Shown: positions 42,892 through 54,156, counted from the stretch's first letter. The stretch is DNA of 64,000 nucleotides from Bacteroidaceae bacterium (GCA_045634305.1 JAZQZZ010000039.1:3818-67817), one strand, 5' to 3'. The notes: generated from the letters alone by a model not told the origin. Translations and numbers: made by a program.

Positions 42892-43479
42892 ATGAACAAC
42901 ATCAGCGAAAAGCACCCGTTGGAGCCATTCCTGCCACAGAATGCAAGGATTCTGATGCTTGGCAGTTTCCCGCCGCCGCAAGCCAAATGGTCAATGCACT
43001 TCTTCTACCCTAACTGGATAAACGACATGTGGCGCGTGATGGGATTGCTGTTCTTCGGCGACAGACACCATTTTGAGCTGAAAGACGAAAAACGTTTCGA
43101 CAAAGAAGCTGTTGTGGAGTTCTGTACCCGGCAGGGAATAGCACTCTACGACACAGCGTGCGAGGTTGTGAGACTAAAGGAAAACGCATCCGACAAATTC
43201 CTTGAGATAAAGACAGCGACCGACATTGCAGCCCTGCTCACCAAACTGCCACAATGCACAGCCATTGTCACCACAGGGCAGAAAGCCACCGACACCATCG
43301 TGGAGAAATTTGGCTGCGTCACACCACTGATGGGCGACAGAACCACCCTGCACATTGCGGGACGCGAGTACAATTTCTGGCGCATGCCATCAACCTCCCG
43401 CGCCTATCCCCTCGCCCTAGAAAAGAAAGCCGCCCACTACCTCAAAATGCTAAAATTTGAAGGCATATCAAGCCTTTAA
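42892..43479 (+). CDS. Uracil-DNA glycosylase superfamily protein (family-6 / deoxyinosine glycosylase-like)
   Basis: 195 aa. The block RILMLGSFPPPQAKWSMHFFYPNWINDMWRVMG is typical of this UDG family. Confidence 0.6.
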   Translation: MNNISEKHPLEPFLPQNARILMLGSFPPPQAKWSMHFFYPNWINDMWRVMGLLFFGDRHHFELKDEKRFDKEAVVEFCTRQGIALYDTACEVVRLKENASDKFLEIKTATDIAALLTKLPQCTAIVTTGQKATDTIVEKFGCVTPLMGDRTTLHIAGREYNFWRMPSTSRAYPLALEKKAAHYLKMLKFEGISSL

Positions 43480-43497
43480 AATAAAAAATAACAAAGT

Positions 43498-43530
43498 TTT
43501 GCATTTATTATGTTTTTTTCTTTATATTTG
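43498..43530 (+). promoter_or_regulatory. Bacteroidetes sigma-A-type promoter of the five-gene operon
   Basis: TTTG (43498..43501), a 21-nt spacer, then TATATTTG (43523..43530), about 100 nt upstream of the ATG at 43629. Confidence 0.55.
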
Positions 43531-43628
43531 CGTATTGGCAATGTTGCACCCCGATATGCAAGGTTGCCAACATTTTGATTGTCAAACCATTAGAATCATT
43601 TCAAAGTATAAAAACATTATTTGATAAT

Positions 43629-44147
43629 ATGAGAAACTATTTCTACATCATTGCCATTTTGTCGCTTATGGTTTCATGTACATCCACTCTATCTGAACCA
43701 TCAAACAAGAAAGAATATATTGAGGATGCACGTAATTTCTACAATCAGGTAGAGGATAACAAGAACACCATCAATCACAAGCTTTGGAGCGAATATAAGA
43801 ACATGAATGATAAGATTATTGGAGAGTACTATCTTCGTTTCAGAGAAGAACTTGTAGCCAGGGAGATTGTATTCATTGGCAACCAGAACAAGAAATTCAA
43901 AAAATATTATTCTGACTACAAAACGCGATATGATTTGGTTGATGAATCTCTAAAAAACGATGGTGATTCAATCAAGATTGCAAGGAAAATTAAGAAATAC
44001 CATGAAAATGGGCAAGAAAATGAATTAACTCAATATCTTGAGGATGCCATTGCTTTGGGTGGCAAAACCAAGATTTATCCCAAAGCAATACTTTTTGACC
44101 TTGAAATTGACGAAGAATACAGCTACCTTTGGGGAGAAGAATGGTAA
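43629..44147 (+). CDS. Small lipoprotein, function unknown (operon gene 1)
   Basis: Start chosen at the ATG at 43629. MRNYFYIIAILSLMVSCTS is a lipoprotein signal with Cys. The remainder is Lys/Glu-rich and helical. The track ORF starts at a TTG at 43575. Confidence 0.55.
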   Translation: MRNYFYIIAILSLMVSCTSTLSEPSNKKEYIEDARNFYNQVEDNKNTINHKLWSEYKNMNDKIIGEYYLRFREELVAREIVFIGNQNKKFKKYYSDYKTRYDLVDESLKNDGDSIKIARKIKKYHENGQENELTQYLEDAIALGGKTKIYPKAILFDLEIDEEYSYLWGEEW

Positions 44148-44171
44148 TAACAAACTAATAAAAAATAATAT

Positions 44172-45287
44172 ATGAATTATAAAGCTATTATCGCAATTCT
44201 GTCACTGTGCTTTGCTGCGCCCACAATAACTGTAAATGCGCAAGAGACGAACGACAAGCAGTTTTATGTCTATCTTTGGGATGTGACACTCTCTATGCTT
44301 GGTCCAGAAAGAGGAGGTGTAGAGGATGTCTGGGACAGCACCAAAGAGTGGCTGATAAACGAAATCAAGTCTAGAAAGACTAACCCTGGCGACACAATCG
44401 TCGTTTGCCCTTTCCAAGAGTGCATTATCAGTGGTGATACAGGTTTGAAAAGGATCGATGCAAAAACCGTCGTGCCAAGACCATACGTATCCGATGCAAC
44501 AGGTGAACCAATGACTTATGACTCCCCATGGAAATTTCCGGCAACTCCCAACGGCAAGCGCGAACTTATAAAGAAAATTGAATCGTTCGTGCAACCGCAT
44601 CACGGCAAAACGAACCTTTATGACCCATTAATGGATGCAAAAAGGGATTATGTCGACATGACCAAGCATAGTACAACCATATACATGCTTACAGATGGTA
44701 TAGATGATTTCAATGAGAATACAGACAAGTCATTCATCAAGGAAATAAATGAAAAATGGAGTAAAAGAGACCCGTTGCTTATCTATATCCGTTTAACAGA
44801 TGCTGCATGCGCCGACATAAAACCTAGTGACAATGTTGAGATAATCAATCCCAAAGAAAGGCTAATTGAAATTTCGGCAACAGTAGCCGGTAAATATAAT
44901 TTTATTGACGCTGTAAAAGAAAACAGAAAGACACAAACAATCAACATCAATCAGGTACAAAAAAACTATGAGCTACCTGAAGGCATAAAAATAAAAGTGA
45001 CATCAGACAATAATCCTTATGTCAAGATTGACGATGTATGCGAAGTCGTTGACGGAAAAATCGACGTCAAACTCAAATACAACCAACAGACTGTTGACGA
45101 AAACATATACAGCAACAGCACCATTGACCTGAACTTCAATGTTGTCAACGACAAGTTGATTAGCGATGATGGATATGTTTATATCATCTCTCTCTCAAAT
45201 ACAAGTTCAAAGACACTTGAGTTGGTAAACAAAGTTCAAAAGACTTTGAAAATCAAGCTTAGAAAAGCTGAACCCATTGAAGAATAA
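44172..45287 (+). CDS. Exported von Willebrand factor A (vWA) domain protein with MIDAS motif (operon gene 2)
   Basis: 371 aa with signal peptide MNYKAIIAILSLCFAAPTITVNAQ. MIDAS elements: FYVYLWDVTLSM (DxTxS, 44280..44294), HHGKTNLYDPL and TIYMLTDGIDD (Asp175 codon at 44694..44696). C-terminal beta-rich domain. Confidence 0.7.
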   Translation: MNYKAIIAILSLCFAAPTITVNAQETNDKQFYVYLWDVTLSMLGPERGGVEDVWDSTKEWLINEIKSRKTNPGDTIVVCPFQECIISGDTGLKRIDAKTVVPRPYVSDATGEPMTYDSPWKFPATPNGKRELIKKIESFVQPHHGKTNLYDPLMDAKRDYVDMTKHSTTIYMLTDGIDDFNENTDKSFIKEINEKWSKRDPLLIYIRLTDAACADIKPSDNVEIINPKERLIEISATVAGKYNFIDAVKENRKTQTININQVQKNYELPEGIKIKVTSDNNPYVKIDDVCEVVDGKIDVKLKYNQQTVDENIYSNSTIDLNFNVVNDKLISDDGYVYIISLSNTSSKTLELVNKVQKTLKIKLRKAEPIEE

Positions 45288-45302
45288 ATAAAAAAGATAA
45301 AA

Positions 45303-46208
45303 ATGAAAGCATTACTTCGTATTATACCACTTTTAGTGATAGCAATACTCGTTTCTTGTGGTCAGGACAAAGACAGGTATGCATTGTTCGGTGAGACCAA
45401 AGCCTATGAGTCATGGGGATGGCACGAATACACTCCCCAGAAAATGGAGCGTTATCTGGATCTTGAATGGAACGATGCCTGCAAGAATTGGCTCAAGGAC
45501 AAGCCAATTACAATAGCAGTGTATACCACTGATGATTATGGTGACGAGATTCCCGCAGAAGACGTAAAGATTTACAAGAACGATGTACTTTGTGAAGGAA
45601 ATAGTTTCACTGTCACCACAGATGAGACCGAAGTAAAATTCGCACTTGAGTTCAAGAAAAGTGCAAAGGACGGTGAACACATTTACTCTTTGAAATACAT
45701 ACCCGAAGGGGGAGAAACAGAGATTCTTGACGAGATTTCTTTCGAAAGTTTCGGTGATGACAACAAGATGATGGCCGACAAAGAGACCATTATGAACCCA
45801 TTGAAAGAAAAAGTCATATGGGCAACATGTATTTTCTTGACTGTTAGTATATTATGGTATATTCTGTCACGTTTTGTATTTTGGCGTAAAACACCATTCT
45901 CAAAGGTTACAATCACATACGAGAACGGTTCAGAAAGAACTATCAGAATGAAGGGTGGCAACAGCCTTGTATGTACAGCAAACACAAAGACCAAGGATTC
46001 TTTCTTTGCAAAGCTTTTCAAAGGAAGCAGACCATACGAATATCACGATTTCTGGACGTCACCGGTTACTATCGGCCGCGGCACAAGAAGCAACAGCATA
46101 TCGTTCACCGGAACAAGACGATATTCAATAAATGGTGAAAGGATACGACGTAGTCCAATTGAAATAATAAACGAGAACGGCGAAAAAGCTACAATACAAA
46201 CAACGTAA
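45303..46208 (+). CDS. Bitopic membrane protein: lipoprotein-type signal, about 150-aa outside domain, one TM, about 107-aa cytoplasmic tail (operon gene 3)
   Basis: 301 aa. MKALLRIIPLLVIAILVSCG signal. TM VIWATCIFLTVSILWYILSRFVFW (45813..45884). The tail contains PVTIGRGTRSNSISF...YSINGERI. Confidence 0.55.
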   Translation: MKALLRIIPLLVIAILVSCGQDKDRYALFGETKAYESWGWHEYTPQKMERYLDLEWNDACKNWLKDKPITIAVYTTDDYGDEIPAEDVKIYKNDVLCEGNSFTVTTDETEVKFALEFKKSAKDGEHIYSLKYIPEGGETEILDEISFESFGDDNKMMADKETIMNPLKEKVIWATCIFLTVSILWYILSRFVFWRKTPFSKVTITYENGSERTIRMKGGNSLVCTANTKTKDSFFAKLFKGSRPYEYHDFWTSPVTIGRGTRSNSISFTGTRRYSINGERIRRSPIEIINENGEKATIQTT

Positions 46209-46245
46209 TCAACAAAAAAATAATAACAACTTAATTCATTTAACT

Positions 46246-49179
46246 ATGGCAAGATTAGTTATAAGACCATCAATTTATATCGGCCTTGGCGGCACCGGTA
46301 TATTGGCGATTTCGCAGACAAAGAAAATGTACGAACAGGAGTTTGGTGAGGGCAATATCCCCAGACAGATTGCTTTCATTGCAATTGACTTTGACACAAC
46401 CGCTCCCAAAAATTCAAATCTGGCAACAGATATAAGCACAGATTTCATGCAAATACCTGATGGTATTGATCCATTGGGTTTCTATCAGGAAGGGCTGGAA
46501 CAGGGCGAGTACAAATGGATGTTCCCCTGCAACGCAGGCTACATCGCACGTAAGATTGTTGATGGTGCAAGCCAGGTAAGAACAACCGGCCGTTTGTATA
46601 CAGAGCTAATCTATTCACACATTGAAGCAAGAATCAGAAACAGCTTTAACAGAGTACAGAACATTGCAAACGAGACAACTGGTGGTGTCGTAGATGTACA
46701 CATGGCAATGTCTATTGCCGGTGGTACAGGTGCCGGTTCATTCATGACAGTTGCGCACATCATCAAGGAGGCATATCCAACGAATGTGAACCTTTATGGC
46801 TATGGTGTAAATTGGGGGGTATTCAGAGCGATGGACCCAAGCGGAAACAAGACACCACGTGTAATTTCAAATTCCTATGCCGCAATTATGGATATTGATT
46901 ACACAATGCATGCTACACCAGCAGAGCCCAAGAAATTGTCTCTCAATAATGAAGAGAAAACAATCAAGAGACCTATTTTTGACACATTCTATGTTATTGA
47001 CAACAAGACAAACCAGGGCGGTGTTGTAAACAGCGTGACAGAGTTGTGCGAAGTTGTTGGTACAAGCATGTATCTATCCGGAAATAAATTGGGTAACAAC
47101 ATTGCATCAATTGCAAGCAACGTTGGTTGGTCAAATGGCTCATATAATATAAAGAACAAGAAAGGTTGGGTACACGGTTTAGGTGCTTGTCAGGTAGTAT
47201 ATAAAGGCGATGAACTTGCAAAAGTATACAAATACAAAGTAGCAAAAGTTCTTATCCAGAAGTTGATTTCACAGGGATTTGAAATTGAGCAGGCTGCTAT
47301 CAACTGGACCATGCTGAGCGATGTAATGATTCGAGAGGATGGCGACCAGTTCAACTACCTCATTGATTCTATTTACCTTGGATCTGAAATCAATAGGCTG
47401 AAAGCTCCTCAGCTCGACATTAATGACACTGACGCCAAGACAAAGGACAATGCTGAAAAATACATCAATGACATGAGCGGCTTCACAAGCGAAGAGAAAA
47501 TCAAGGCTCGCAAAGTCGCTATTGAAGAAGCATTGAAAAAGGAAGTAGAGAAGTATCTTAAAGAAGAGAACGGAATTGGCAATGCAATCACATTCCTTAC
47601 CAAACTTACTTCACTTTGCGCACAATACAAGAATGAAATGCAGGATGAGTACCTTACCATTGACAAGAAAATAACCGATCTTCATAAAAAGCTCGAAGAG
47701 GGATACAAAGAGTATGAGGATAAGAGAAATGGATTTAAATGGAAATTCAGAAGTCTCGAGACAAAAGAAGCCATTCTTGAGGAGTGCATTACTGTAACAG
47801 CAAATACAATCCTTAAACAGAAATTCGAGGCACAGCGCCGCAGAGTAGCCGAGAGTATCTTCAATGAACTTATTGAGTTGATTAAGACATTGAAGACAGG
47901 TGTTGAAAACACAATGACAACACTTAACAACATTGCATTATCATACAGCAATGAATTGGAAAAACTTCAGAAGGACACAACATCTGCACGTCAGTTTGAG
48001 TACGACCTATCTCAAATAGAGCGCGTAAACATGACACTTACTGCTGAGGATGCGGCAAGTTTGCTCGTCAGCGACTTCGTTAGTACACTCAACAAATCCG
48101 TTTCTGAGTACTCACAACATGATTTGTCAGAAGCAATCCTTACATACACTGATACTCTTGAAAGAACAAAGAGATATCGCGAGACACTTGTACTTGATGT
48201 AATCGACAAGTTGAGTGAAGTGGAATGGGAGAATTTGATAGAGACAATCACATGCAAATCAGGTCTATTGCTTGACATTAACAACAAGGGTCAGAAGATT
48301 GCCGGTTCACCAGCAAACCAGAAGATGGTATCCAACTTCATGGTTGCATACTATGGCAAGGACAACGCAACCCTTACGCGTTTCCAGAAAGACCCGGCAT
48401 TCATGCACAATATATTGAACAAACATTGGGTTTCAATGGATACCGACATCATGAGACAGAGGGTAATCTTCTACCGAGTTGATGGTGCTATTATCCCTTA
48501 CTGTCTGAATGAGTTCCCTGATCATGTAATCGAATCCGGCTACAACAAGGATGTACGCAACAAGCATACATTCAACCCACACTACGATAGCACCATCTTT
48601 GATTGGATGCAAGCCAATGACTTCAAGTTGAAACCAGAAATGTCTAACGAGGCTATGTTCTATTGGGTATGCGGTCACATCTTCGGTTGGGACGATATCA
48701 CAGAAACAGAGAGAATCATGGAAAAGGATGAACGCGGTGTTGTTGTCAAAGAGATAGACAAAGAGAACAAGCCTCATAGAAAGTTTATCAGTTGCCAGAA
48801 GGGAAGCTACTTCTATTGGGATGAAGAGACAATGTCACGTCCAGGCACAAAGAAGTGGGTTCCACTTGAAGAAGCTGGAACAAAACGTCGTGATACAGCG
48901 TTCAACTACTTCAAGACACGAGTTCTCCCCGAGAAGAAGGACCTATTCTATTCACTTATCAAGAGTGAAGTCAGCAGTAAGGGTATCAGCTACTATCAGG
49001 GTATTATTGATGGCATCGTAAGTCGCGGCATTGATGACTATATCAACCAGCTCGTATGTTCAGACAAGAGCAGCATCACATACTCTCAAAAGGGCAACGG
49101 TGGTGAGTTGCAAGCTATCATGGCTGAATTTGAATATTTGAGCAGAGATTTGAAGAACACATTGAGCAATCTTAATTAA
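46246..49179 (+). CDS. Tubulin/FtsZ-superfamily GTPase-like protein with long C-terminal extension (operon gene 4)
   Basis: 977 aa with no signal or TM. IGLGGTG (46279..46299). AGGTGAGS (46717..46740) matches the tubulin signature [SAG]GGTG[SA]G. DGASQVRTTGR lies between them. The C-terminal roughly 600 aa are coiled-coil-rich and unassigned. Confidence 0.7.
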   Translation: MARLVIRPSIYIGLGGTGILAISQTKKMYEQEFGEGNIPRQIAFIAIDFDTTAPKNSNLATDISTDFMQIPDGIDPLGFYQEGLEQGEYKWMFPCNAGYIARKIVDGASQVRTTGRLYTELIYSHIEARIRNSFNRVQNIANETTGGVVDVHMAMSIAGGTGAGSFMTVAHIIKEAYPTNVNLYGYGVNWGVFRAMDPSGNKTPRVISNSYAAIMDIDYTMHATPAEPKKLSLNNEEKTIKRPIFDTFYVIDNKTNQGGVVNSVTELCEVVGTSMYLSGNKLGNNIASIASNVGWSNGSYNIKNKKGWVHGLGACQVVYKGDELAKVYKYKVAKVLIQKLISQGFEIEQAAINWTMLSDVMIREDGDQFNYLIDSIYLGSEINRLKAPQLDINDTDAKTKDNAEKYINDMSGFTSEEKIKARKVAIEEALKKEVEKYLKEENGIGNAITFLTKLTSLCAQYKNEMQDEYLTIDKKITDLHKKLEEGYKEYEDKRNGFKWKFRSLETKEAILEECITVTANTILKQKFEAQRRRVAESIFNELIELIKTLKTGVENTMTTLNNIALSYSNELEKLQKDTTSARQFEYDLSQIERVNMTLTAEDAASLLVSDFVSTLNKSVSEYSQHDLSEAILTYTDTLERTKRYRETLVLDVIDKLSEVEWENLIETITCKSGLLLDINNKGQKIAGSPANQKMVSNFMVAYYGKDNATLTRFQKDPAFMHNILNKHWVSMDTDIMRQRVIFYRVDGAIIPYCLNEFPDHVIESGYNKDVRNKHTFNPHYDSTIFDWMQANDFKLKPEMSNEAMFYWVCGHIFGWDDITETERIMEKDERGVVVKEIDKENKPHRKFISCQKGSYFYWDEETMSRPGTKKWVPLEEAGTKRRDTAFNYFKTRVLPEKKDLFYSLIKSEVSSKGISYYQGIIDGIVSRGIDDYINQLVCSDKSSITYSQKGNGGELQAIMAEFEYLSRDLKNTLSNLN

Positions 49180-49187
49180 TTGACAAA

Positions 49188-52100
49188 ATGAACTATTGCG
49201 TACATTTCTTCGTTGGTAAGGAATTTGAGACATTATTGGAAGGCATTGCATACGACCTTCTCAAAAACGACCTTTCGGCACTTAAATTCAACAAGTATTA
49301 CTTAATTGAATCAGGAGTAGATGGTCATTTGAATTATCGCGAACTAAAAGTTTGTGTTAAAGACAGTAAAGAAGAAGGAAACGTTGAATTCACAACAATA
49401 GATTGTCTTAACAACAATATTGCCTTATCCTGGGCTAACGTTGAACAGGGCAATAGTAATGATAAAGAGAATTTGTTTACTGGTATTTTCGACAGTGTAC
49501 TTACTGTCGAAAATGCCAGAAAACAAAGCTTGCTCAACACTTTTATATACTTCCCATTATACAAGGAAGAAAGCATCGGCCTAGTAGGCAACCTGTGCAA
49601 AAATATCACGACTTCCTCAAAAAGTAATCTGACAGAAGTTACATTCATTACATTTGGTGATGACATGTGCAAGGTTATTGAAGAGGATTACAAGACAAAG
49701 CCTACAACAACCAAAAACCTTGACAAATTTGACAAGATTCGCAATGAATTGGGTCTCGTTGAACAGAAAAGCCACCTTGTATTCATGCACGACAGTACCA
49801 CTAGCGGTTTGGCGCTTGGTATGGACAAGGCCAAGTTTACAGACATGTTGGCACAGCTTGCAATTCTGATGTCAACATCGTACAAGGAGATTTTCCCAAT
49901 GATAAACAGCGAGGCAGAGGCTACATGTATCGGTTTCTCTTCGCTTTACTTCAGTGAATATCTATTCATCAATTACCTTGTCAATAAGGCAACACTCGCT
50001 GCAATAGACAGTGCATCGGTAAATGACGAAAAGATAGATATAAACAAGACATTCCAGACAACTAATGAAATGTTGAGAAGACGAGACAACATTCTCTCAA
50101 CATTCCTCAACAAGCACAAGACCGATTGTGCAGAAGGTAGCCACAAGGAAATAGCAGAGGAGATAGAAGACATCCTGAAATCAGTTTCTGCCAAATTCCA
50201 GGAGACAAAGAATATGACAGAAAAAGCAGCTATACTTGCAGCACTGCTTTCAAAAACCGATTATGAATTGTTTGCAAACGCTGTATACAATTCAGAAAAC
50301 ATCAACCTCAGTGACTTGTACAACGAGGCTATCGAATTCTTCATCACAGAGGACGTTGCAAAATTCTATAAGGAGGGGGAAGATGAACTTATCAACCCAT
50401 TAAAGGAGTTGAAAATCATTAATCAGAAAATTCTTAACTCATCGAGCCAGATACGCGAACTTGAAAAGAGTTCTTCAGAACTTGAAAAACTCATCGACGA
50501 GAGTGGCAAAGCACAGGAGTGTTTTGTAAGCAATGAGATTACCATTGACGACAAAAAATTCCGTTTGCTTCCATCTGTTGAAGAAGAACCCCTACAGGAA
50601 TGCTACGAAGAACATGAAGTAAGCATTGAGAGTATCGACTTGAGAGGAAACTTCAGCCCAATAAAGAGCCAGGGACAGCAGGGCTCATGCGTTGCGTTCA
50701 CATTGACATCTATTTTTGAATATATGATGAAAGTGAGCAAGCAGGAAGATTGCGACCTCAGCGAAGCCTTCCTGTATTACAACGCCAGACATCTTGACCA
50801 GGCAGATGACGTGAGCACACAAGAGGATAGCGGTTCACGCTACAAACCATCGATGGATTCTCTTGTCAAATATGGTATCGCCCTGGAAAAAGTGTGGCCA
50901 TACCATGAGGAGATATATACACAAAAGCCATCGAACGAAGCATACGAAGATGCAGGCAAGAGAAAACTCAGAAAAGCATTGAGCGTAAAGCTTAATTCAG
51001 ACGCAATAAAATCGGCATTGTCAGACGGCTACCCTGTTGCAGGTAGTTTTGCATTGTTCCCCAGCTTTTTTGAAGCCGGAGCATATATCCCCATACCTTC
51101 ACAGGAGGAGATTGAGCAAACAAAGGCAAATGCCAACAACCCCGAGAAGCAACTAAAGCATGGACATCACGCCATGGCCATTGTAGGTTTCAGCGACCAG
51201 TTGAACATGTTCCTTGTCCGTAACTCATGGGGCGAGGATTGGGGTGATAAAGGATATTGCTACATACCATATGCTTATATCAACAATCCCGAGCTATTCA
51301 CTTTTGCTGCTATTATTACAGAAGTGGATTCCCTTGAGACAAAGATGCCCGAGCTGCGTGAAATTCCCGCACTCAAGATTGACAGTGACGATATTCTTAT
51401 CCGTTTCTATATTACAAAGGCTGCGCTTGACAACGAAAGACGTGCACTATGCTTGTACAAGAAACAGAGGGATGAATGGCAGGCATATTTCGAGGCTTTG
51501 AAAATAAAATATGCAAATTCCAATGACAATAGAAGATTCGTCAATGCTAACACTGAATTCCACAACAATGAAATTGTTAGGTTGGAGAATGAAAACAAAG
51601 AGGCAGAAACCAGACTCGAAGGTATAAAGAAAGAGCTTAACAAATCTAATTTGATAGCCATCATCAAAATGATAGCTTTTGTTGTTCTGACATTCGTTGG
51701 CGGAATAGCTATTAACAAATGGCTGGTTAGTATACATAACAATGCAAAGGACAAACTGCTCAGCGCAATCAGTAATGACAATTATGGTGGTTTCGCAGAA
51801 AAGGTTGTAAAATTCCTTGACGCTGAAAACGGTGGTACAATCCAATTGAGCTGGTGGGTAATGATACTCATTTCTGCTGTTATAATCGGATTTATCATCT
51901 ATAGGCAAAGTTCAAAATGGAAGGTCTGGAGAGAAGAACGCGATACATTGTATGTAAAGATTGAGAGAAACGAAAAAGAGATTGCCACAAGAAAGAGCAC
52001 AATAAAGACACTGAAATTCTCGGCATTCGCAGCATGGACAGTAATAACAAACCTTACAACCATGCAAGAGAAATTGCTGAAGATGTACAACAGTATCATA

Positions 52101-52691
52101 TCACTGATAAACAATTTGAGAGTTTGGTACAAGGAAGTTGAACAGAACAACAATAAGATTAGCCTTGCTTCAACATTCTCTAACATATCACTCTTATCAG
52201 AGGATATTCTTGACAACTATTTCAACAACACTTTAAAGAATACTGGTGAATGCGATGTTGACCTATGTGAAGAGATTGACAAGTTTGCAATTGACGCAGA
52301 ATTCCTTGCAAACTTTAAGCAACAGCTACGCAATAAGATCATCACTAAGTTACAGGAACATCTGGAACGTAAGGAGTTCTCTGTAACAGAGCATATGGTC
52401 AAGAATACATATAGCGACATCGCCATAAAGGTCGACTATGATATAATAAGCGATTTACAAAGGAACTCGAACCTATTTGCATACGTTGAAACTTTGAAAC
52501 AAGATGCAAAGGCAGCCATTGCACCAGACTTAGAGAACTACAGACACGATGTGTTGGACAAATTAGCACCAGGCACCACATTGTTAGAGTCAACAAACAA
52601 ATACCGAATGCAAGTCGTAAATGTACGCCTTCTCAAGTACAGCGAGATTGTTGCCTTCAGAGGAGCTACTGTAAGCGGCAAAAAGAAATGA
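49188..52691 (+). CDS. Membrane-anchored papain-family (C1) cysteine protease with large N- and C-terminal unknown domains (operon gene 5)
   Basis: 1167 aa. IDLRGNFSPIKSQGQQGSCVAFT (Gln495, Cys501 codon at 50688..50690). KHGHHAMAIVGF (His661 at 51168..51170). LVRNSWGEDWGDKGYCYIPY (Asn679 at 51222..51224). TM hairpin LIAIIKMIAFVVLTFVGGIAI / LSWWVMILISAVIIGFIIY (about 51649..51903). No signal peptide. Confidence 0.8.
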   Translation: MNYCVHFFVGKEFETLLEGIAYDLLKNDLSALKFNKYYLIESGVDGHLNYRELKVCVKDSKEEGNVEFTTIDCLNNNIALSWANVEQGNSNDKENLFTGIFDSVLTVENARKQSLLNTFIYFPLYKEESIGLVGNLCKNITTSSKSNLTEVTFITFGDDMCKVIEEDYKTKPTTTKNLDKFDKIRNELGLVEQKSHLVFMHDSTTSGLALGMDKAKFTDMLAQLAILMSTSYKEIFPMINSEAEATCIGFSSLYFSEYLFINYLVNKATLAAIDSASVNDEKIDINKTFQTTNEMLRRRDNILSTFLNKHKTDCAEGSHKEIAEEIEDILKSVSAKFQETKNMTEKAAILAALLSKTDYELFANAVYNSENINLSDLYNEAIEFFITEDVAKFYKEGEDELINPLKELKIINQKILNSSSQIRELEKSSSELEKLIDESGKAQECFVSNEITIDDKKFRLLPSVEEEPLQECYEEHEVSIESIDLRGNFSPIKSQGQQGSCVAFTLTSIFEYMMKVSKQEDCDLSEAFLYYNARHLDQADDVSTQEDSGSRYKPSMDSLVKYGIALEKVWPYHEEIYTQKPSNEAYEDAGKRKLRKALSVKLNSDAIKSALSDGYPVAGSFALFPSFFEAGAYIPIPSQEEIEQTKANANNPEKQLKHGHHAMAIVGFSDQLNMFLVRNSWGEDWGDKGYCYIPYAYINNPELFTFAAIITEVDSLETKMPELREIPALKIDSDDILIRFYITKAALDNERRALCLYKKQRDEWQAYFEALKIKYANSNDNRRFVNANTEFHNNEIVRLENENKEAETRLEGIKKELNKSNLIAIIKMIAFVVLTFVGGIAINKWLVSIHNNAKDKLLSAISNDNYGGFAEKVVKFLDAENGGTIQLSWWVMILISAVIIGFIIYRQSSKWKVWREERDTLYVKIERNEKEIATRKSTIKTLKFSAFAAWTVITNLTTMQEKLLKMYNSIISLINNLRVWYKEVEQNNNKISLASTFSNISLLSEDILDNYFNNTLKNTGECDVDLCEEIDKFAIDAEFLANFKQQLRNKIITKLQEHLERKEFSVTEHMVKNTYSDIAIKVDYDIISDLQRNSNLFAYVETLKQDAKAAIAPDLENYRHDVLDKLAPGTTLLESTNKYRMQVVNVRLLKYSEIVAFRGATVSGKKK

Positions 52692-52745
52692 GAAAGTATA
52701 AATAAATGCGCAATGTTTGCAAACTGATAGGCGCAACAACATCAC

Positions 52746-52776
52746 GGGACCGGCTTTATAAAGCCGGTCCCCTTTT
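52746..52776 (+). terminator. Rho-independent terminator of the five-gene operon
   Basis: gggaccggcttt-at-aaagccggtccc followed by ctttt. Confidence 0.7.
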
Positions 52777-52825
52777 GTTATAGGCAAAAAACCGTAAACG
52801 AGTCACATATTCAATAAAATAATAA

Positions 52826-52833
52826 TATATTTG
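52826..52833 (+). promoter_or_regulatory. Bacteroidetes -7 box (TATATTTG) for 52879..53721
   Basis: TAnnTTTG match 46 nt upstream of the ATG. Confidence 0.4.
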
Positions 52834-52878
52834 CGCAAGGATAGAAATTTTAGACTGAACGCATAAACACAAGCACAT

Positions 52879-53721
52879 ATGTCACTATTCAATTGGTTAA
52901 AAGGACTTTTTAGTGGAAAGTCGATAAAAGGGAGCAACTCTACGAGCACAAAGACTATAACTCCGCAGCCAAAGGAGCGCAATATTACGCCATCACACCA
53001 TGCAAGGCACAAGGAGTACAACGCCGGTTCGGCAAAACGTCTGTCGGGGAGCATATATGTGCTTGCGGTATTTGCCGGTGACGGGCATTGGAGCAGAGCC
53101 GGGAAGGAGAAGTTGCTTAACGAGCTGTACAAGGCCGAAAAATGGATAAGGAAAGAGGCTGCACGCTATGGCAAGAGCGTGAGTTTCAAACATGGGACAT
53201 ACGGTCTCGACAAGACCATCAACGTGCATGTTGCTCCGGGACATGGTACCGGCAACGAGGATTGCCGTGTCGCGCACAAGGTTCTCGGTGCTGCAGGATA
53301 CAAGAGCATTGGGCAGTTCTATGAGTGGTTCAGGAAGAACGAGCAGTGCGACAATTGCCTGGTCATAGTCTTTGCACAGGGACGGGGACGTTCATATGCC
53401 GTACCCTACACTCCTGAATATAACGCGGACTATTTTACCGAGAGTTGTATAATCTACGAGGCTTACGAGGATGGCACGCCGCAAATTGCCTTTGGCATGG
53501 CACACGAGATGCTCCACTGCTTTGGTGCCGAAGACTTGTACGAAACGTTCGAAAAGCCACAGATTGTTGAGCAGGAGGCAAAGAAACGTTATGGCAACGA
53601 CGTGATGCACAGGTTCGACTATGAACTCGACAACCTTAAGATTGACGAGTTCACAGCATGGTGTGTGGGACTTACCGATACATGGAAGGATGAGTTCAAC
53701 ATTTTCCTGAAGAAGAAATGA
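52879..53721 (+). CDS. Putative cytoplasmic zinc metalloprotease (HExxH...GAEDxY)
   Basis: 280 aa with no signal peptide. Motif FGMAHEMLHCFGAEDLY (HEMLH = 53503..53517), reminiscent of the HExxHxxGxxDEY layout of M64-like zincins. It has its own promoter box, and its composition resembles the core genome. Confidence 0.5.
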   Translation: MSLFNWLKGLFSGKSIKGSNSTSTKTITPQPKERNITPSHHARHKEYNAGSAKRLSGSIYVLAVFAGDGHWSRAGKEKLLNELYKAEKWIRKEAARYGKSVSFKHGTYGLDKTINVHVAPGHGTGNEDCRVAHKVLGAAGYKSIGQFYEWFRKNEQCDNCLVIVFAQGRGRSYAVPYTPEYNADYFTESCIIYEAYEDGTPQIAFGMAHEMLHCFGAEDLYETFEKPQIVEQEAKKRYGNDVMHRFDYELDNLKIDEFTAWCVGLTDTWKDEFNIFLKKK

Positions 53722-53795
53722 GCTACCGGGAGAATAAAAAAACATATTCACCGACAAAAAAAGCATTAAATCTTTTACATTTCGCAAAAATCTTC

Positions 53796-53803
53796 TAAAT
53801 TTG
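53796..53803 (+). promoter_or_regulatory. Bacteroidetes -7 box (TAAATTTG) upstream of the zapA operon
   Basis: TAnnTTTG match 51 nt upstream of the ATG at 53854. Confidence 0.4.
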
Positions 53804-53853
53804 CGGGAAATCACAAAACAGAACACTTTTGTTTGTGAAAAGTGTGTTGTACT

Positions 53854-54156
53854 ATGACCGAGCAAGACAGAAATGCAATGACAACTTTTGAGGAGAAGCT
53901 CCACCGCCTTGTGTATGAGCACAAGCAGCTGAAGGAGCAGAACCGTGAGTTGTTGCGCACAATTGAGGAGAAGGACAATTCCCTCATTGAACTGCAAAAG
54001 CACTGTGACGCACTCGAGAGCAATTACAACAACCTTAAGCAAGCCAAGATAATAAGCCTTAGCGATAACGGAATAGAGAACGCAAAGGAGAGAATATCGA
54101 GGCTGGTGCGTGAAATCGACCGATGCATTGAGTCGCTAAAGAAACAGCCGGAATAA
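53854..54156 (+). CDS. Small coiled-coil protein (ZapB-like position upstream of zapA)
   Basis: About 100 aa from the ATG at 53854. Heptad-rich sequence LVYEHKQLKEQNRELLRTIEEKDNSLIELQ. Function inferred only from position. Confidence 0.45.
   Translation: MTEQDRNAMTTFEEKLHRLVYEHKQLKEQNRELLRTIEEKDNSLIELQKHCDALESNYNNLKQAKIISLSDNGIENAKERISRLVREIDRCIESLKKQPE

Follow-up and report, generated by a model that had tools for sequence, protein, structure and literature searches.

A five-gene operon of the FtsZl1-vWA class in Bacteroidales

We analysed a 64,000-nucleotide stretch of DNA from a Bacteroidaceae bacterium (GCA_045634305.1 JAZQZZ010000039.1:3818-67817; hereafter the window) that carries a compact cluster of five open reading frames (ORFs), designated g1 to g5. 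All five lie on the + strand, separated by gaps of 24, 15, 37 and 8 nt (Table 1), and the boundaries of g1, g2 and g3 agree with those in a first-pass annotation that had been made from the sequence alone. g2 is predicted to be an exported protein with a von Willebrand factor A (vWA) domain, g3 is a bitopic protein of the lipoprotein type, and g4 and g5 encode a tubulin-like GTPase and a papain-like protease. The central observation is that g3 splits into two evolutionary modules, an "outside" module that goes with g2 and an "inside" module that goes with g4 and g5. With moderate confidence, we propose that this five-gene Bacteroidales operon belongs to the FtsZl1-vWA class and that g1 to g3 form its periplasm-facing half, in which g2 and g3 would act as a receptor signalling to the GTPase and the protease.

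Operons that combine FtsZl1 (Tubulin_2) with vWA proteins were predicted as a class by Makarova and Koonin (2010, Biol Direct 5:33; PMC2875224). In the window, a Tubulin_2 gene is co-oriented with a vWA gene in one predicted operon with gaps of 8-37 nt, and the cassette shares with that class the combination of an FtsZl1 gene, a vWA protein that carries a signal peptide as well as an intact metal ion-dependent adhesion site (MIDAS), and lineage-specific membrane proteins. It differs in lacking three kinds of protein often seen in other FtsZl1 operons (kinases, P-loop GTPases and OmpA proteins), and in that its vWA protein is too divergent for Pfam. The supplement of the 2010 study lists a Bacteroides caccae neighbourhood in which FtsZl1 is accompanied by a 535-aa hypothetical protein and a COG4870 cysteine protease; the study describes neither the bitopic g3 family, nor g2-g3 fusions, nor the module split, and leaves the protease pairing undiscussed (PMC2875224). 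Among culturable strains, B. caccae ATCC 43185 has a related cassette (BACCAC_02056-02058). The g3 coupler family, the g2-g3 fusions and the module boundary at the membrane are new here.

The comparison covers 12 loci, the window counted among them, from Bacteroidaceae, Muribaculaceae, Prevotellaceae, Rikenellaceae and other Bacteroidales metagenome-assembled genomes (MAGs); a profile search with a 10-sequence family alignment led to five genome loci in Bacteroidales MAGs. The order g2-g3-g4-g5 is kept in all 12.

Table 1. Features of the g1-g5 operon, in window coordinates.
Feature	Position (nt)	Strand	Basis or remark
Candidate operon promoter box TATATTTG	43523..43530	+	Bacteroides-type -7 box TAnnTTTG, ~100 nt 5' of g1
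g1, 172-aa predicted accessory lipoprotein, remotely DUF6565-like	43629..44147	+	Relaxed lipobox MVSC, Cys17
g2, 371-aa predicted exported vWA protein	44172..45287	+	Family alignment, AF2 model, Foldseek, MIDAS conservation
g2 signal peptide, residues 1-23	44172..44240	+	Predicted signal peptidase I site between VNA and QE
g2 vWA domain, ~residues 28-215	44253..44816	+	Strand/helix order in model, Foldseek, MIDAS
g2 MIDAS	D37 44280-44282; T39; S41 44292-44294; T147 44610-44612; D175 44694-44696	+	Alignment and model
g2 C-terminal beta-sandwich, ~residues 220-355	44829..45236	+	All-beta in model
g3 lipoprotein signal peptide, residues 1-19, lipobox LVSC, Cys19	45303..45359	+	g3 ORF, 45303-46208
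g3 periplasmic Ig-like beta-sandwich, residues 20-165	45360..45797	+	Model
g3 transmembrane helix, residues 166-194 (166-193 in model)	45798..45884	+	Flanking charges and model
g3 cytoplasmic beta-rich tail, residues 195-301 and stop	45885..46208	+	Model
g4, 977-aa FtsZl1/Tubulin_2 GTPase	46246..49179	+	PF13809, E=1.9e-50
g5, 1167-aa, papain-like C1 peptidase domain at residues 482-694	49188..52691	+	PF00112, E=2.8e-16
Intrinsic terminator closing the g1-g5 transcription unit	52746..52771	+	11-bp stem, 8 GC pairs, then T-run

g2 is a cryptic exported vWA protein with a complete MIDAS

The vWA fold of g2 goes undetected by Pfam, NCBIfam, PADLOC and PDB sequence profiles. It is apparent in an AF2 model built from a 10-sequence family alignment, which has a mean predicted local distance difference test score (pLDDT) of 77. 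When this model is compared with the PDB using Foldseek, 72 matches are obtained at E<=1e-3, and the best 50 of these 72 are vWA-containing proteins; matches include ITIH1, complement C2a/factor B, the integrin alpha2 I domain, Sec23/24, ArnB, ANTXR2, CLCA1 and Ku80. The C-terminal sandwich takes part in the similarity as well, with alignments of 330-390 columns to proteins that combine a vWA domain with a sandwich (Sec23/24, ArnB, ANTXR2). Sequence provides a transitive link to the family, since several fused homologues of g2 (see below) do match Pfam VWA (PF00092 or PF13519), P0111 for example scoring 26.8 bits against a gathering cut-off of 23.8.

The MIDAS residues sit where a vWA fold requires them: in the model, D37-x-T39-x-S41 follows the strand formed by residues 30-37, T147 precedes the helix at 150-160 and D175 comes after the strand at 167-174. 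We aligned 32 members of the g2 family at about 25-99% identity, comprising the neighbours of g3 homologues in the 12 loci, nine database homologues and 11 fusion proteins. D37, S41, T147 and D175 are invariant throughout, and position 39 is Thr in 29 members and Ser in three. The predicted cleavage site is conserved too: none of the 10 members of the close family deviates at A23 or Q24, and in most distant relatives, too, the signal peptide ends between Ala and Gln. Based on model and alignment, g2 is thus best described as an exported vWA protein with a complete MIDAS, as the first-pass annotation had suggested from its motifs; its recognition as a cryptic member of the vWA family is new here.

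Two peculiarities of the family were noted along the way. Residues ~86-118 of g2 (44427-44525) form a clade-specific vWA insertion of ~33 aa, modelled as a beta-hairpin, which is missing from L001, L002 and the fusion proteins in hhalign alignments. The 675-aa fusion P0170 is the sole family member with LTDC in place of LTDG after the MIDAS Asp, and its five MIDAS residues are intact.

g3 is a bitopic protein with folded domains on both sides of the membrane

The g3 layout proposed at first pass, with a lipobox signal, an outside domain, a single transmembrane (TM) helix and an inside tail, agrees with both family conservation and modelling. Of 175 relatives, 166 (95%) have Cys in the lipobox column, and a lipobox-like motif, defined as [LVI][ASTVI][GAS]C where an N-terminal signal peptide ends, occurs in 151 of the 161 non-fused members; by this motif, g3 and g1 are both predicted lipoproteins. 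A model built from 26 sequences (mean pLDDT 83) places the strands of an immunoglobulin (Ig)-like sandwich between residues 27 and 162, and folds residues 201-300 of the tail compactly, with nine short strands and a single helix (pLDDT ~90). The strongest signature of the family is N165-P166-L167 at the boundary between periplasm and membrane, conserved at 99%, 91% and 83%, respectively. The helix is preceded by NPLKEKV and followed by SRFVFWRKTPFSK, with more positive charge on the C-terminal side; these flanking charges fit the positive-inside rule and hence an N-out/C-in orientation.

An exhaustive hidden Markov model search of 1.84 billion representative proteins yielded 501 clusters of the g3 family at E<=1e-3, of which 219 reach E<=1e-30, which makes it a large, though unnamed, family. 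Foldseek searches with the whole model gave weak matches to Ig-like sandwiches (PapD, the PorA N-terminal domain and the GH123 N-terminal domain; best E=1.2e-3), so that none of the best 50 PDB matches listed falls below E=1e-3, and the best 50 listed from BFVD are generic Ig-TM glycoproteins. We considered that the C-terminal domain of g2, the periplasmic domain of g3 and the g3 tail, all of them beta domains, might have arisen from one another by duplication, and found no evidence of this, as pairwise hhalign comparisons reached a probability of at most 0.6%. With its lipobox and its C-terminal-proximal TM helix, the periplasmic domain of g3 would be membrane-attached at both ends after the predicted processing.

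The outside half of g3 goes with g2, the inside half with g4 and g5

g2 and g3 occur as a single chain in 11 of the best 150 clusters of the g3 family (579-676 aa). In these fusions the g3 profile covers the C-terminal half and sets in at position ~21-28, so the g3 signal peptide is left out; a complete g2 homologue with a signal peptide and MIDAS of its own makes up the N-terminal half (hhalign E=1.4e-28 for P0051). Such an arrangement implies that the vWA domain and the Ig-like domain of g3 share one side of the membrane, with the tail on the other. In the fused forms, g2 takes the place of the g3 lipid anchor. The two ORFs also overlap by 11-20 nt in several loci.

We then compared pairwise protein identities across the 66 pairs formed by the 12 loci, treating the coefficients as descriptive because locus pairs are not statistically independent. 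The identity of g2 tracks that of the g3 periplasmic domain (Pearson r 0.88, Spearman rho 0.71), and the identity of the g3 TM helix plus tail tracks that of g4 (0.94 and 0.77) and of g5 (0.93 and 0.69). The two halves of g3 itself correlate poorly with each other (r 0.36, rho 0.00). Partial correlations separate the modules in the same way: g2 with the periplasmic domain given g4 retains 0.86 and TM plus tail with g4 given g2 retains 0.91, versus cross-terms of -0.22 and 0.01.

Individual locus pairs show where the modules meet. By blastn, L009 and L012 share 93% identity over a stretch that begins at L009 nt 1655, takes in g4 and g5 and reaches the contig end. Upstream of this breakpoint no DNA alignment is found, and the g2 proteins are ~24-30% identical, depending on alignment mode. 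The breakpoint falls at about codon 162 of g3, eight residues before the NPL motif, which is the junction between periplasmic domain and TM helix; the g3 periplasmic domains of the two loci are 21% identical and their tails 99%. Other comparisons are discordant as well. Between L001 and L014 the periplasmic domain is 64% identical, versus 23% for TM plus tail, 28% for g4 and 29% for g5, and in P0005 the corresponding values are 79% for the periplasmic domain versus 49% for TM plus tail. Between L002 and L005, synonymous divergence (dS) has reached saturation in g2 and in the periplasmic domain of g3, but is 0.4-0.9 elsewhere. The fusions, the conserved gene order, the modular co-inheritance and the breakpoint at the membrane junction support the view that g3 probably links the outside and inside halves of the system.

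All cassette genes are under purifying selection, with ratios of nonsynonymous to synonymous divergence (dN/dS) of 0.02-0.17, and 0.02-0.08 for g1-g3 against L004. These values led us to reject gene-wide positive selection on the outside module, which diversifies via module exchange. In the comparison with L004, dS of the g3 periplasmic domain is 2.4, against 0.34 in TM plus tail; the region is short and the estimate noisy, and the unevenness may mark another recombination tract.

The g3 tail is predicted to be a folded beta domain and shows no FHA signal

The first-pass annotation had seen in the tail a faint resemblance to FHA domains, and the letters of the G-R ... S ... N-G pattern (TIGRG...INGERI) are literally present in the window protein. 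Across 26 family members, however, the signature positions are poorly kept (R259 in 9 of 26, N277 in 5 and G278 in 17), so the resemblance is no more than expected by chance, and no S-x-x-H motif is seen in the g3 family alignment. Neither the 26 full-length g3 members nor 25 maximally diverse tails match PF00498 or related FHA families in Pfam at E<=10, and no FHA chain is found with PDB sequence profiles at E<=10, whether the whole protein or the tail alone is queried. The direct comparison of a 172-sequence tail profile with an FHA profile built from GarA, OdhI and an FHA consensus gives an hhalign probability of 0.3% over 13 columns, with the periplasmic domain as a control reaching 1.9%; the FHA side of this test worked, given that the consensus alone retrieves 45 solved FHA chains. 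No FHA protein is among the best 50 PDB or BFVD Foldseek matches listed (of 1656) for the whole 301-aa model.

We therefore reject an FHA identity for the tail, which is modelled as a folded beta domain without a recognisable relative. A PilZ-like reading (RxxxR, D/NxSxxG) was dropped by eye, as its motifs have the wrong spacing and their residues are poorly kept in the family. One g3 relative has a chance-level match to BatA_N (E=0.18).

The GTPase g4 and the protease g5

No TM helix was found in g4, which weakly matches the "helix-rich" family TIGR04523 and has long coiled-coil-like regions. g5 has a TM hairpin (about residues 819-849 and 882-909) that is kept in every homologue examined, with a loop of 1-80 aa. 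The hairpin and its variable loop suggest that g5 is membrane-anchored, without a conserved periplasmic domain. Because g5 carries this hairpin, g3 is not the sole membrane-crossing component. The earlier idea that only g3 could carry information across the inner membrane therefore survives in part: the fusions, co-inheritance and breakpoint favour its role as a link, and the word "only" has to go. g3 is the sole cassette protein with folded domains on both membrane sides.

The closest relative of the window, L004, has a cassette that is 93% identical and carries a second Tubulin_2 paralogue (L004:17527-19899; 790 aa, 34% identical to g4) between g5 and the homologue of the downstream gene g6 described below; at this place the window has just a 187-nt gap. 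In L002, a 101-aa protein with a weak DnaJ_CXXCXGXG match and a 63-aa N-terminal Tubulin_2 fragment lie directly 3' of the protease gene (L002:17446-17955). The fragment is 51% identical to g4 residues 8-68 and may be the remnant of a second paralogue. DnaJ Cys-rich domains have been noted in FtsZl1 operons (PMC2875224).

g1 is a predicted, accessory lipoprotein

The lipoprotein signal ascribed to g1 at first pass is present: its N-terminus is hydrophobic (MRNYFYIIAILSLMVSC) and ends in a relaxed lipobox. The gene and its lipobox are kept in L004 and L012 (61% identity), and its dN/dS is 0.05 (vs L004). A place for g1 in the core of the envelope-facing half is not borne out, as it lies upstream of the cassette in only 5 of the 12 loci (the window, L004, L012, L013 and L014) and is therefore accessory. 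g1 has no Pfam match at E<=0.1, PF20203 (DUF6565) included. A pairwise BLASTP alignment with the DUF6565-annotated protein of L013 spans 160 aa at E=1e-5, and both proteins agree in length and in lipobox position. g1 thus appears to be a remote homologue of the DUF6565-annotated lipoproteins of L013 and L014. In those two loci, a DUF6565 lipoprotein and a small PqiA-like (PF04403) membrane protein precede the cassette (L013:8003-8957 and L014:8011-8983), a pair that, as an accessory set, seems to be an alternative to the window's lone g1.

Transcription signals and genomic setting

The g1-g5 block is a low-GC island, at 39-41% GC compared with ~49% in its flanks. The candidate promoter box upstream of g1 (Table 1) is at most consistent with a promoter, because TAnnTTTG is not enriched in the window (43 observed vs 44 expected, i.e. 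chance level). No inverted repeats were found around the promoter region, and control by an invertible promoter or phase variation is rejected on this ground. The predicted terminator is the sole + strand intrinsic terminator within 43300-53900.

Cassettes are distributed sporadically and their insertion contexts differ between loci. A search of all components against PADLOC-DB 2.0 gave one chance-level match only, of g1 to MTase_II (E=0.012), and we reject membership in known anti-phage defence systems, since no component has a real match there. The cassette sequence is present in bovine gut metagenomes. Low-depth contigs from a gut metatranscriptome, 95-99% identical over the 3' end of g3 and over g4, provide weak evidence that a close relative of the cassette may be expressed.

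Two neighbouring genes frame the operon. Directly upstream of the island, a 195-aa gene (42892-43479) has a sub-threshold match to DNA-deoxyinosine glycosylase (TIGR04274, E=2.6e-11, 43.9 bits vs a cut-off of 80), and L004 has a copy of it in the same position (86% identical). On the other side, g6 (52879-53721) encodes a 280-aa HExxH protein without a signal and has its own TATATTTG box 3' of the operon terminator. L004 carries a 70% identical copy of g6 at the same place, and L012 is without g6 despite a common downstream zapA-rny neighbourhood.

Proposed mechanism and alternatives

From the architecture described above, we infer a mechanism in which g2, with its vWA-MIDAS domain and beta-sandwich, is secreted to the periplasm and docks on the periplasmic domain of g3. 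The two would form a two-chain receptor of integrin/ANTXR-like layout, which some relatives produce as one polypeptide. g3 would sit in the inner membrane with a lipid-modified N-terminus, and its TM helix and tail would engage the FtsZl1 GTPase and the membrane-anchored papain-like protease. A putative acidic ligand would bind the MIDAS, the binding would be relayed across the membrane, and the relayed signal would alter the assembly of the GTPase and thereby the activity of the protease.

Several points weigh against this receptor model. The identity correlations between modules are driven by a handful of recombinants and by non-independent pairs. Signalling could run outside-in or inside-out. 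Since g5 has a TM hairpin of its own, coupling could run via lateral contacts between TM helices, not via the tail. A defence role is not indicated, given the lack of a PADLOC match and flanking genes that vary between loci. Finally, literature on PF13809, Tubulin_2, DUF6565 and FtsZ-like, vWA and anti-phage systems yielded no experimental characterisation of any cassette member.

The same anatomy would also fit an inside-out structural machine, in which FtsZl1 polymers use the g3 anchor to position or pull a periplasmic vWA adhesin, for membrane shaping, vesicles or envelope tethering and not for sensing. Bacteroidales are prolific vesicle producers, which counts in favour of such a machine, as do the coiled-coil-like regions of g4 with their weak TIGR04523 match and the extra PqiA-like membrane protein upstream in L013 and L014. 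The FtsZl1-vWA association was, moreover, first read as membrane remodelling by Makarova and Koonin (PMC2875224). We still judge this explanation unlikely: it leaves the invariable partnership with a papain-like protease unexplained, FtsZl1 has no recognisable T6-H7 polymerisation elements (PMC2875224), and repeated swapping of the outside module is more in keeping with ligand specificities that change than with one fixed structural task. That same repeated exchange could instead point to an envelope-triggered conflict system directed at phages or competitors, with the vWA/Ig module detecting an invader or a breach and an FtsZl1-gated protease acting as suicide or growth-arrest effector. The low GC content of the island, its sporadic distribution and varied insertion contexts would fit, and so would the defence-like or mobile neighbours of some cassettes (AAA_15/AAA_21, HTH_17 and DUF3876 in L001; RE_AlwI and DUF1016 in L002). 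Most contexts, however, are not defence islands (L012, L013, L015), PADLOC recognises none of the components, and the low gene-wide dN/dS gives no sign of an arms race at gene level, so that we consider a conflict system quite unlikely.

The reading of the first-pass annotation, in which the g3 tail is an FHA-like module that docks on phospho-threonine and recruits the GTPase or the protease, can draw on the letters in the window protein, on FHA-domain genes that adjoin FtsZl1 genes in some Planctomycetes (supplement of PMC2875224), and on the existence of a vWA-FHA pair, ArnB-ArnA, in Sulfolobus (PDB 8s05). With the signature positions unconserved, with Pfam, PDB profiles, hhalign and the best 50 whole-chain Foldseek matches all free of FHA, and with all 12 cassettes lacking kinase and phosphatase genes, it is very improbable. 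Returning to the receptor model, a more far-reaching version would amount to bacterial integrin-style outside-in signalling: a split or fused MIDAS-vWA/Ig receptor with a swapped ligand module, belonging to a family of >500 sequence clusters, would gate the assembly of a tubulin-family GTPase via a new cytoplasmic beta domain and so license a membrane-tethered papain-like protease, and the output could be a response to envelope breach or phage. We regard this version as improbable as it stands.

Comparison with known receptor and vWA systems

The likeness to integrin alpha-I and ANTXR (CMG2/TEM8) receptors is one of analogy, not of whole-receptor homology. In both arrangements a vWA-MIDAS domain on the outside precedes beta-sandwich and Ig-like domains, after which come a single TM helix and a tail. 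Foldseek matches of g2 include the ANTXR2 ectodomain and integrin I domains, and the fused relatives reproduce the single-chain layout. By analogy, the g3 tail may connect to a cytoskeletal-family protein, as the cytoplasmic tail of these receptors does. The differences are considerable. The cassette encodes a bacterial, periplasmic system whose parts are divided between two chains in this genome; its first MIDAS motif is DxTxS, not DxSxS; its tail is a folded beta domain of ~100 aa; and the proposed partner is a tubulin-family GTPase plus a protease, not actin adaptors.

Among prokaryotic systems, ArnA and ArnB form a cytoplasmic, phospho-regulated pair in which ArnA carries a genuine FHA domain. 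ArnB of Sulfolobus acidocaldarius resembles g2 in combining a vWA domain with a beta-sandwich and in having a small beta-rich partner (PDB 8s05, 5a8j), and ArnB and an ArnB paralogue are Foldseek matches of g2 (E=4e-6 and 8e-5). ArnA, an FHA/zinc-finger protein, was retrieved by our FHA queries against the PDB. Unlike this pair, the cassette has a vWA protein that is exported in our prediction and a g3 tail without FHA support. The Bat (Bacteroides aerotolerance) operon offers another comparison, being a multi-gene envelope operon of Bacteroidales whose BatA and BatB are membrane-associated vWA proteins. Bat operons pair their vWA proteins with a MoxR AAA+ ATPase, DUF58 and TPR proteins, and we know of none with a tubulin-like GTPase, a papain-like protease or a g3-like coupler.

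FtsZl1 (Tubulin_2) is the most divergent branch of the tubulin/FtsZ superfamily, and an experimentally established function has been lacking since the prediction of 2010. A reviewer of that study asked how a cytoplasmic tubulin-like protein could work with exported vWA proteins (PMC2875224). A bitopic g3 coupler, with an outer half co-evolving with the vWA protein and an inner half co-evolving with the GTPase and the protease, would be a testable answer to this topological objection, and the compact four-gene cassette defined here would lend itself to study in culturable Bacteroides.

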